Shown: positions 60,458 to 61,680 of the stretch, one piece after another | How positions within the stretch are numbered: the stretch's first letter is position 1 | Layout: every line of letters starts with the position of its first letter | Source of the DNA: Clostridium sp. CAG:440 | GTDB lineage: Bacteria > Bacillota > Clostridia > TANB77 > CAG-508 | Direction: 5' to 3' | DNA: 64,000 bases | NCBI GenBank assembly: GCA_000437215.1 | Contig: FR898645.1 | Location: forward strand, 9,979 to 73,978 | Made by a program: the position numbers and the translations under genes | The notes under the pieces: model-generated | Seen by the model: the letters and a program-made list of their open reading frames with translations, nothing else | Told to the model about the DNA's origin: nothing | The model's database searches: none

Positions 60458-61363
60458 ATGAAAGTTGGAATAGATTTAGGAGGAAGCCATATAGCAATAG
60501 GCGTCGTAGATGAAAATGGAAGAATAATAGAAAAGCAAGAAAGACGAATATTAGATAAAGAAAAACAAGAAATAAAAACATTTATAGAAGAATATATAAT
60601 AAAAAATATAAAGGAAATGTCAAAAAAATATAAAATTACAAATATAGGAATAGCAATTCCAGGTACAGTAAACAAAACATCTGTTATAAAATCAGTTAAT
60701 TTAAATTTAGAAAATTATAATATAGTTGAAGCATTAAAGAAAAAAATAAACATACCAATAAAAATAAAAAATGATGCAAAATGTGCAGCACTTGCAGAAA
60801 ATAAATATGGAAGTCTAAAAGATTATAAAAGGTCAATATTTATAGGGCTAGGAACAGGAATAGGTGGAGCAGTAATAGTAGATGATAAATTACTAGATAC
60901 AGGAGACTTACCAGGTTGTGAAATAGGACATATGATAATACAAAAAGATGGGCTAGAGTGTAAATGCGGAAAAAAAGGATGCTTTGAAAAATATGCTTCT
61001 ATGAAGGCATTTAAAACAAATTTAAGAAAAGAATTAAATTTAGATGAAAAAACAAGAGGAGAAGAATTATTAAATATATTAAGAAACAACAACGAAAATA
61101 ACAAAAATTATAAAAAAATAGAAAAAGTTATAAATGATTACATAGAATATTTAAGTATAGGAATATCTAATTTAATTAATATTTTTGAGCCAGAAGCAAT
61201 AGTAATTGGAGGAAGTTTTGTATACTTTGAAGATGTATTATTAAATAGATTGTATAAAAAGATAATTGAAGGTAATTTATTATTTAATAAAAGAGATAGT
61301 CTTATAATAAAGCTTGCAGTATTAGGAAATGATGCTGGAATAATTGGAGCAAGTCTTTTATAA
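60458..61363 (+). CDS. glcK: ROK-family glucokinase
   Basis: Contains MKVGIDLGGSHIAIGVVDENG, GLGTGIGGAVIVDDKL and CEIGHM..CKCGKKGCFE. Confidence 0.8.
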   Translation: MKVGIDLGGSHIAIGVVDENGRIIEKQERRILDKEKQEIKTFIEEYIIKNIKEMSKKYKITNIGIAIPGTVNKTSVIKSVNLNLENYNIVEALKKKINIPIKIKNDAKCAALAENKYGSLKDYKRSIFIGLGTGIGGAVIVDDKLLDTGDLPGCEIGHMIIQKDGLECKCGKKGCFEKYASMKAFKTNLRKELNLDEKTRGEELLNILRNNNENNKNYKKIEKVINDYIEYLSIGISNLINIFEPEAIVIGGSFVYFEDVLLNRLYKKIIEGNLLFNKRDSLIIKLAVLGNDAGIIGASLL

Positions 61364-61680
61364 AGAAAAAAATTGCCACCGGTTCCGGGTTTAAATGGCA
61401 CTAAATTGCCACTGGTTCCGGGTTTGGATGGCAATATATTATTTTAATGTACCGCGTAAGCGACCAAACGAGTGCTTATAGCACGAGTGCGAATTGGAGC
61501 AACCAACATATAATTTTTATAAAATTGGTTGCGACACCAAGGTACGAAAAAATAATATATTGCCATCCAAACCCGGAACCAGTGGCAATTTAGTGCCATT
61601 TAAACCCGGAACCGGTGGCAATTTTTTTCTTTATAAAAGACTTGCTCCAATTATTCCAGCATCATTTCCTAATACTGCAA
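61314..61680. repeat. 367-bp palindromic element with perfect 127-bp arms (61314-61440 and 61554-61680). The left arm includes the last 16 codons and stop of glcK.
   Basis: Arms checked base by base. Each arm contains a tandem ~31-nt repeat AAATTGCCACYGGTTCCGGGTTTRRATGGCA. The centre holds core copy 2. Confidence 0.9.
61449..61545 (+). other. Conserved GC-rich 97-nt core (copy 2), a candidate structured RNA or recombination site
   Basis: GTACC...GGTAC closing pair, CGC-GTAA-GCG (GNRA-type) hairpin, tandem ACGAGTGC, and a long hairpin TTGG-A-GCAACCAA..TTGGTTGC-GACA-CCAA. Sequence varies between the copies mainly in hairpin loops. Confidence 0.45.

Follow-up and report, generated by a model that had tools for sequence, protein, structure and literature searches.

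We analysed a stretch of 64,000 nucleotides from Clostridium sp. CAG:440 (hereafter the window), in which a 367-bp palindrome begins inside the 3' end of glcK, a gene for a glucokinase of the ROK family, and extends into the region downstream of it. This palindrome is probably a derived and apparently strain-specific allele, which was generated by a replication template switch in a pre-existing hairpin-forming repeat. The alleles of 18 other assemblies of the same species are shorter and imperfect at this locus, and the tract that sets the window apart is an exact reverse complement of the opposite arm and the adjoining glcK flank, which agrees with the fold-back or template-switch mechanism suggested in the initial annotation.

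Architecture of the palindrome at glcK

The features of the locus are listed below, with coordinates that refer to the window.

60458–61363, plus strand: glcK, ROK-family glucokinase of 301 amino acids (open reading frame with Pfam ROK; stop codon TAA at 61361–61363)
61314–61453, no strand: left arm, with the glcK 3' end (61314–61363), an A7 run (61366–61372), two 33-nt units and the inner arm
61370–61402 and 61403–61435: the tandem units of the left arm, 33 nt each
61429–61453: inner arm conserved in the family plus the 5' strand of helix P1, within the left arm
61449–61545, plus strand: conserved structured core of 97 nt (covariance model match at 61441–61554, 126.6 bits)
61541–61680, no strand: right arm, an exact mirror of the left arm except for mismatches proximal to P1
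61613–61680, no strand: strain-specific templated tract, the exact reverse complement of 61314–61381 (outer left arm and 50 nt of glcK)
61631–61680, minus strand: inverted duplicate of the last 50 nt of glcK
61713–62249, plus strand: downstream gene of 178 amino acids, no Pfam family

The total extent of 367 bp was the same as that given in the initial annotation, but the perfect arms are longer than the 127 bp that had been reported. An ungapped scan gave perfect complementarity over 132 nt (61314–61445 and 61549–61680), and a repeat search of the window gave arms of 140 nt each (61314–61453 and 61541–61680) with 98% complementarity and a spacing of 87 nt. Similarly, each arm contains two tandem units, as had been described, with a period of 33 nt instead of 31 nt. 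The unit motif occurs four times in the window, as compared to 0.08 times expected, and all occurrences are located within the element at glcK. The arm units of 30–33 nt, which are common to both elements in the window and to relatives, are small hairpins consisting of TGCCA or GGTCAA, then GTTCCGGGTTT, then TGGCA or TTGACC. A reading of TGGCAC-N4-TTGC in the arms as a sigma-54 promoter was rejected upon visual inspection, the spacing being 1 nt shorter than the consensus. Folded as single-stranded DNA (ssDNA), the segment 61300–61700 reached −182 kcal/mol (z = −33), a stability beyond what chance could explain.

The end of glcK (61314–61363) is exactly reverse-complementary to 61631–61680, confirming that the 3' end of the gene is repeated in inverted orientation in the far arm. 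The duplicate comprises 15 sense codons, the stop codon and 2 nt. Because of this duplicate, the minus-strand open reading frame 61631–61828, designated as spurious in the initial annotation, ends in AVLGNDAGIIGASLL in translation. The 97-nt centre (61449–61545) is shared with a second element at 16893–17233, where it has the opposite orientation, as had also been observed.

The coding sequence of glcK is intact in the window allele. Its ATG start codon is preceded by a ribosome-binding site, the gene most plausibly extends from 60458 to 61363, and the identical protein of 301 amino acids was identified in 875 blocks of a public assembly collection. The native protein ends in ...LAVLGNDAGIIGASLL and the proteins of relatives end in ...AVLGNDAGIIGSTLI or ...AILGNDAGIIGSTLL. 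The 3' end of the gene is identical in every strain compared, including a deletion allele described below, and is conserved in relatives at 75% identity. We could thus rule out that the C-terminus is supplied by the element, since it is conserved both in the deletion allele and in relatives that contain other elements or none at all. Judged by this conservation, the end of glcK is native and not element-borne.

Alleles of the locus in other strains

Contigs from other strains were collected using the identical GlcK, its 310-residue gene call, the identical downstream protein and one metagenome scan. A total of 18 contigs from independent assemblies, four of them longer than 1 Mb, span the element (L025–L030, L042, L043, L045, L046, L048, L050–L055 and L065). 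All of these share the glcK end, the A-run, the left arm, a core in minus orientation and a right arm that ceases to match the left arm at ...CCCGGAAC. The flank is also the same in all 18 contigs, with ...CCCGGAAC followed by TATTGACATTTTTTCCAATATATGGTAAAATT and then by AATATTACCG. The two arms of these alleles match over approximately 66 nt, after which they diverge (TTGCCACCGG versus TGTCAATAG). The ancestral layout consists of the glcK stop codon, A7, a left arm of approximately 85 nt, the 97-nt core, a right arm with an imperfect outer end, T6 and a predicted promoter. An inverted copy of glcK was found in none of the 18 alleles. Comparison of the glcK downstream region, as proposed in the initial annotation, has thus revealed an ancestral imperfect palindrome with a promoter and without any inverted gene end.

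The window allele differs in that its core is in plus orientation. On the right side, the sole difference to the 18 alleles is one contiguous change, in which the tract 61613–61680 (66–68 nt) replaces the ancestral 32 nt TATTGACATTTTTTCCAATATATGGTAAAATT that hold the predicted promoter. The ancestral junction reads ...GGAACTATTGACA...GGTAAAATTAATATTACCG and the derived junction in the window reads ...CCTAATACTGCAAATATTACCG. The final AA of the tract (61679–61680) is a microhomology with the ancestral flank, and the window is collinear with the other strains on both sides of the palindrome.

The same locus also shows rearrangements of the kinds expected of an unstable palindrome. A deletion allele (L024, which is the same contig as L049; 3906–4066) has lost 155 nt between direct repeats of ATTGCCA, a loss that takes out the core together with the inner left unit and the inner right arm but keeps the promoter. 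Contigs L027–L030 have tandem duplications of 10 nt (TGCCACCGGT) or 16 nt in the left arm only. In L046, L052 and L055, conversion has given the outer unit the inner unit's sequence. An A/T polymorphism at the junction of the units affects both arms at once in most strains, and a single arm in L024, L028, L042 and L048.

Another ten contigs end inside the element (L041, L044, L047 and L064, plus L066–L071). Four of these have a core in minus orientation (L041, L044, L064 and L067), four break before the core so that no orientation can be read (L047, L068, L069 and L070), and two have a core in plus orientation (L066 and L071). The plus orientation in the latter two represents either real inversion heterogeneity or an ambiguity of the assembly graph. 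In addition, three contigs of 1.1–1.6 kb (P0002, P0008 and P0010) encode a GlcK that is 98–99% identical to that of the window and is joined on one or both sides to unrelated sequence; in P0002, the divergence begins directly after LAVLGN, inside the equivalent of the outer left arm of the window. These three are probably chimeric low-coverage contigs.

Origin of the derived allele

An exact reverse-complement tract that returns at an AA dinucleotide is the signature of a quasipalindrome template switch, and the palindrome was therefore most likely extended on the spot. The polymerase steps that follow are those that we infer from the demonstrated sequence relationships and allele distribution. 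In the first step, the nascent strand would pair through the complementarity of the arms with a wrong template, which could be its own opposite arm or the sister strand. Copying would then proceed outward beyond the end of the old palindrome for 66–68 nt, across the outer part of the left arm and into glcK for 50 nt, until the strand returned to the correct template at the AA dinucleotide. This would make the arms perfect, duplicate the last 50 nt of glcK in inverted orientation and remove the 32 nt that contain the downstream promoter.

With G for the glcK end and L for the left arm, the window allele can be written as G-L, followed by the reverse complement of G-L-core, followed by the flank. 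A single switch between strands, which begins in the first arm and copies the opposite parental strand through the core, the arm and the glcK end, would yield all four features, that is, the inverted core, the perfect arms, the 50-nt extension into glcK and the 32-nt loss. The GC skew suggests that the plus strand is the leading strand, with glcK located on it, and the simplest version is therefore that the 3' end of the leading strand moved onto the lagging-strand template. We consider the chances of this particular strand assignment to be about even. Intermolecular template switching has been described to give arm homogenisation, spacer inversion and expansion of inverted repeats as joint products (PMC8604942; PMC13100816; PMC8794818).

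Alternatively, an intramolecular fold-back would account for the tract alone, in which case the inversion would be a separate event or not real. The corresponding scenario of two events, in which the core was flipped first by arm recombination or an earlier switch and a later intramolecular fold-back extended and perfected the right arm, is possible although we think it the less probable course. Intramolecular switching on its own suffices for a tract such as 61613–61680 (PMC8604942). Furthermore, the plus orientation is also seen on the broken contigs L066 and L071 with a different left-arm haplotype, and the orientation of the core at the glmS locus differs between species (L063 versus the window), suggesting that flips recur. 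However, all 18 spanning alleles are minus-oriented, the orientation on the broken contigs may be a traversal artefact, and it would be a coincidence that the sole spanning plus allele is also the sole extended allele. Under either intermolecular or intramolecular switching, the extension is by its sequence a templated copy of the opposite arm.

Several observations weigh against a template switch in the living cell. The derived allele rests on one assembly, because its junction is absent from all others searched (0 of the 18 spanning alleles and 0 matches in metagenome contigs). An in-vitro template switch by a polymerase, for example during multiple displacement amplification (MDA), would produce an identical pattern. 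Little weight can be given to the core orientation, because perfect arms of 132 nt leave the loop unorientable in a short-read graph, and the plus orientation of L066 and L071 on another haplotype than that of the window implies that the inversion may be a separate recurrent event or an artefact. Finally, the return switch is based on a microhomology of just 2 nt.

The strain could have the ancestral allele, and the extended arm could be due to a mis-resolved inverted repeat or to chimeric fold-back molecules from MDA, template switching in the polymerase chain reaction, hairpin fill-in or fold-back long reads. The allele is unique among about 20 assemblies, many contigs of the species break inside the element, which marks it as a trouble spot for assemblers, and the orientation of a loop within an inverted repeat would be ambiguous in de Bruijn graphs. 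We nevertheless regard such an artefact as improbable. A mis-traversal of the graph would be expected to fold back into the whole of glcK and not to rejoin the correct flank after exactly 50 nt, and since the rejoining occurs at a junction that lacks support from ancestral k-mers, this junction should be present in the reads. A minority chimera should not win the consensus, the collinearity with other strains extends to both sides, and comparable templated conversions were observed at the second element, between bofA and glmS, in several independent assemblies.

The initial annotation had also suggested that the element itself generates inverted duplications of its target. The hypothesis that the element, or a transposase or recombinase acting on it, duplicates flanking DNA in this way finds some resemblance in a related species, where the arm GCTATATTATATTA of the filled site L058 mirrors TAATATAATATAGC of the core-less site L056, and in the arms of 16893–17233, which reach the stop codons of both flanking genes. 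However, the 14-nt sequence of L056 fits the inner-arm consensus of the family (ATATTATATTA in L015 and AATATATTA in both copies of the window), and we therefore consider L056 more probably the product of a deletion that spared one arm. The 18 spanning alleles lack an inverted flank, and at 27 other copies of the family the arms end before the flanking genes or overlap them only slightly, with no inverted copy of unique flanks apparent by eye. Nor was there a recurrent neighbouring protein gene. Altogether, these results make the hypothesis scarcely credible.

Predicted effects on the flanking genes

In the ancestral allele, the downstream gene is preceded by a predicted promoter, TTGACA-17-TAAAAT with an upstream TG (11/12 matches; 4158–4186 in L025), which is located approximately 35 nt upstream of the start codon and is present in 18 of the 18 spanning strains. 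Its −35 box falls where the old right arm diverges at its outer end. A promoter scan of 61613–61712 in the window identified no such site, suggesting that the gene at 61713–62249 has lost its promoter in this strain.

The ancestral hairpin is bracketed by A7 and U6. In the window, the T7 run at 61622–61628, which follows the stem in the ancestral state, is now paired inside the longer stem. Since the run is buried, termination after glcK may be weakened, and read-through may possibly compensate for the lost promoter. A simple terminator scanner found no intrinsic terminator at the glcK element in either the window or L025, because the loop of the hairpin is longer than 8 nt.

A promoter-like sequence derived from the core, TTGCGA-16-AATAAT, faces the gene at 61713 in the window and faces glcK, in antisense, in the other strains. 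This could be taken to mean that the locus is a programmed inverton, in which the arms are recombination sites, the core is a phase-variable outward promoter and the window represents the "on" state for the downstream gene, and it is true that both core orientations occur among the assemblies. The sequence falls within the invariant 3' portion of the core together with the inner arm and matches at only 9 of 12 positions, no more than expected by chance in this region. A role of the 3' end of the core as a conserved outward promoter is not supported across subfamilies, one of which lacks a correctly spaced −10 box by eye. Furthermore, no recombinase is linked to any copy (the neighbours at the glcK locus are type II secretion system genes, the ROK gene, a gene of unknown kind, rpsB and tsf), the 18 spanning alleles have a single orientation and the templated tract would be left without an explanation. 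We conclude that an inverton is very improbable.

A repeat family with a covarying core

A 20-nt word from the core was found in 24 copies at 23 loci in 16 species-representative genomes, all of them uncultured gut Clostridia or Clostridium metagenome-assembled genomes, one of which is a HiFi chromosome. A covariance model was built from 19 copies. It identified 29 full-length copies in the window and the 23 loci from the 16 genomes, with only two copies in the window and as many as seven across the four loci of one metagenome-assembled genome.

The core consists of the 5-bp closing helix P1, GCGTAAGCGAYCAAACGAG, a variable hairpin P2, CGAGTGCGAATTGGAGCAACC, a variable hairpin P3 and GGTTGCGACACCAAGG, and the three named strings are invariant. 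The core of the window (61449–61545) displays P1 as GTACC/GGTAC, a GCGTAAGC mini-hairpin, P2 and P3. A tandem GA/GA internal loop is located beside the junction in each of the three helices (ACGAG..CGAGU, UGGAGC..GCGACA, and GAA/NAA below P1), as evident from visual inspection. Tandem GA loops and the GCGTAAGC mini-hairpin are stable in both RNA and ssDNA.

Analysis of the alignment supports a real structure. Standard pairs were formed by 95.1% of the paired cells, as compared to 85.2% in shuffles and 19–42% when the partners were slid, and 67 cells were changed on both sides, with 21.8 expected. In P1, all five pairs covary. At paired positions U·G is far more frequent than A·C, and the plus strand of the core is 2 kcal/mol more stable than the minus strand (p = 0.009). 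On this modest evidence, one strand is probably the folding one, which applies to RNA and ssDNA alike.

The elements are approximately 150–370 nt long, non-coding and located between neighbouring reading frames, save for chance frames that cross them. Terminal inverted repeats of 23–140 nt form the arms. Directly around the core, arms of 23–92 nt with about 78–100% identity are present at every copy, their sequence differing by locus and subfamily, and the two copies of the window have by far the longest and cleanest arms. At most loci the copy is located within about 10–60 nt of a stop codon, in either orientation. The orientation relative to the flanking gene is mixed (about 14 to 7), which gives no strand rule. 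No consistent direct repeat was seen by eye at the arm ends, and TA flanks were observed only at 16899/17228. No protein family recurred within 3.5 kb of the copies. A functional link between glcK and glmS, both sugar-phosphate genes, was also considered and rejected, other copies being adjacent to unrelated genes.

Searches for known relatives were negative. Against Rfam release 15, the whole window gave only the glmS ribozyme (19143–19298) at the gathering threshold, the element at E<=10 gave only generic long-hairpin microRNA models far below the threshold, and the core alone gave no match. A scan for transfer RNA and transfer-messenger RNA found none. The core with its inner arms had no match to plasmids and phages by blastn, viral contigs scanned with core k-mers gave 0 matches, and a literature search with core sequence strings retrieved no paper containing them.

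The family looks like a non-autonomous palindromic repeat of the type of MITEs (miniature inverted-repeat transposable elements) or repetitive extragenic palindromic (REP) sequences, unusual in having a conserved interior and variable arms. The repeat family and its covarying core appear to be undescribed, and would be a more novel item than the mutation class. The core could function as a mobile gene for a small RNA, with a stem for RNase III-type processing, as the site recognised by a structure-specific enzyme or as an invertible outward promoter. A broader proposal, which we put forward with low confidence and consider rather doubtful, is that the core is a new class of structured module that folds as a single strand (RNA or ssDNA), with three GA-loop helices and GCGTAAGC, located at the tips of long hairpins in gut Clostridia, the stems of which would be maintained, homogenised and lengthened by template switching and occasionally take in gene ends and promoters.

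The bofA/glmS copy and the layering of palindromes

The second copy in the window and a related palindrome have the following coordinates.

16893–17233, no strand: second copy of the element family, between the convergent genes bofA (16640–16900, plus strand) and glmS (17226–19067, minus strand)
17006–17115, minus strand: core of the bofA/glmS copy, from the covariance model
49065–49177, no strand: independent palindrome of 113 nt without a core, with 47-nt arms that are 87% complementary and termini (GGGACGGGGWTTTTGTCTTAAGG) that match the outermost arms of 16893–17233

The arms of 16893–17233 include the stop codons of both bofA and glmS, and their outer 35 nt (GGGACGGGGWTTTTGTCTTAAGG...) belong to another palindrome family. 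From its matching termini, the palindrome at 49065–49177 represents this second repeat family. A third inverted-repeat family has copies at 41558–41694 and 60276–60400 (ATTCTTAAATTAATTATATATTCT..CCAGGGC / GCCCT..AGAATATATAATTA, with a 59-nt centre), the latter of which is located just upstream of glcK. An ordinary glmS ribozyme is located upstream of glmS (19143–19298, minus strand; RF00234, 89.9 bits), and near the bofA/glmS element is a gene for a TraG/VirD4-type coupling protein (T4SS-DNA_transf, TraG-D_C; 13775–16105, minus strand), which is conserved in all strains.

Ten other strains share the architecture of the window at bofA/glmS. In L033 and L034/L036, clustered substitutions have turned the left arm into the mirror image of its counterpart; the change in L034/L036 also includes a 5-nt insertion. 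A CCTGC/CATGC polymorphism affects both arms at once in some strains and a single arm in others. These patterns are supporting evidence that templated conversion from arm to arm may be recurrent in these elements among strains. Evolution of the arms in concert explains why each copy is a near-perfect palindrome while the copies differ from one another.

In related species, the glmS/bofA site contains a plain terminator hairpin in L062 (87% GlmS identity), only an inverted pair of 30-nt units in L061 (89% GlmS identity), and the units with an exactly central core in L063 (84% GlmS identity; 96 bits), in opposite orientation to the window. The series suggests either a stepwise layering of palindromes or symmetrical central deletions, the data being compatible with both directions. 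In a species with 75% GlcK identity, the region downstream of glcK contains a diverged core (74 bits) flanked by arms of 22 nt only in L058, while L056 has no core but has kept a 14-nt arm remnant, and L059, from another relative, has a different perfect palindrome of approximately 85 nt just 3' of the gene (2407–2560; CCACCTTGAATTTGGGGACACTCTTAAAAATCAAGG...). Across these genomes, the 3' flank of glcK emerges as a hotspot for palindromic repeats, and sites of this kind seem to gain palindromic layers and lose centres over time.

Significance and comparison with known systems

The glcK allele would be a large-scale natural example of templated mutagenesis in a common human-gut bacterium, the mutation class being already known and the scale unusual. 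Its polarity is readable from 18 ancestral assemblies versus one derived allele, and a functional cost is visible in that a near-consensus predicted promoter has been overwritten and the U-run of the likely glcK terminator buried in a stem. One polymerase slip may thus alter how a neighbouring gene is expressed and leave behind a long perfect palindrome with coding DNA in it. Such palindromes yield spurious open reading frames that resemble genuine C-termini, cause contigs to break and render the orientation of the loop untrustworthy. Moreover, the undescribed family, with a strongly covarying core and no Rfam match, merits study both as RNA and as a mobile element.

The closest known class is the quasipalindrome-associated template-switch mutation. 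The Ripley model, the intermolecular strand switch of Rosche, Trinh and Sinden, and the E. coli hotspots from the Lovett laboratory are reportedly part of this background. As in such mutations, an imperfect inverted repeat has been made perfect by a clustered change that is the reverse complement of the opposite arm, with expansion past the old boundary, an apparently inverted spacer, two proposed polymerase hops and a microhomology at the return. Published cases mostly involve arms of 5–20 bp and spacers of a few bp, whereas the arms are here 140 nt, the spacer 87 nt and the tract 66–68 nt. Furthermore, the substrate is here a dispersed repeat element, with coding sequence captured and a promoter deleted. 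In yeast, homogenisation, spacer inversion and expansion of inverted repeats are treated in PMC8604942, PMC13100816 and PMC7202029.

Among bacterial repeats, the family can be compared to MITEs and to repeats of the REP and bacterial interspersed mosaic element type, such as Correia, RUP, ERIC and REP. It shares with these small, non-coding and dispersed intergenic copies, which usually follow a stop codon directly, as well as terminal inverted repeats, subfamilies both inside one genome and across genomes, presence or absence at orthologous sites and a likely (predicted) terminator activity. It differs in that the 97-nt core is nearly invariant with compensatory changes while the arms vary between loci, and in that the arms are layered from several repeat families. 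No consistent target-site duplication was seen by eye, and no autonomous partner was found for the family in neighbourhoods within 3.5 kb.

Some insertion sequences insert into palindromic units (PUs), such as IS1397 and ISKpn1 in the loops of PU/REP sequences and members of the IS110 family in REP. The glmS/bofA series of L062, L061 and L063/window looks like an insertion at the apex of a hairpin in the manner of IS1397 and ISKpn1, but there is no transposase here, and the series could equally be symmetrical central deletions. With invertons, the element shares inverted repeats around a short segment that is seen in both orientations and a weak outward promoter-like match. It differs from them in having no linked recombinase, far longer arms, membership in a dispersed family with a structured core and one orientation in 18 of 18 spanning alleles. 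Finally, long perfect inverted repeats that overlap coding sequence are described for mitochondrial genes of Nematomorpha (PMC6649704). Both arms of those palindromes are located in genes and encode protein, whereas here one arm overlaps a gene and its mirror copy is non-coding.

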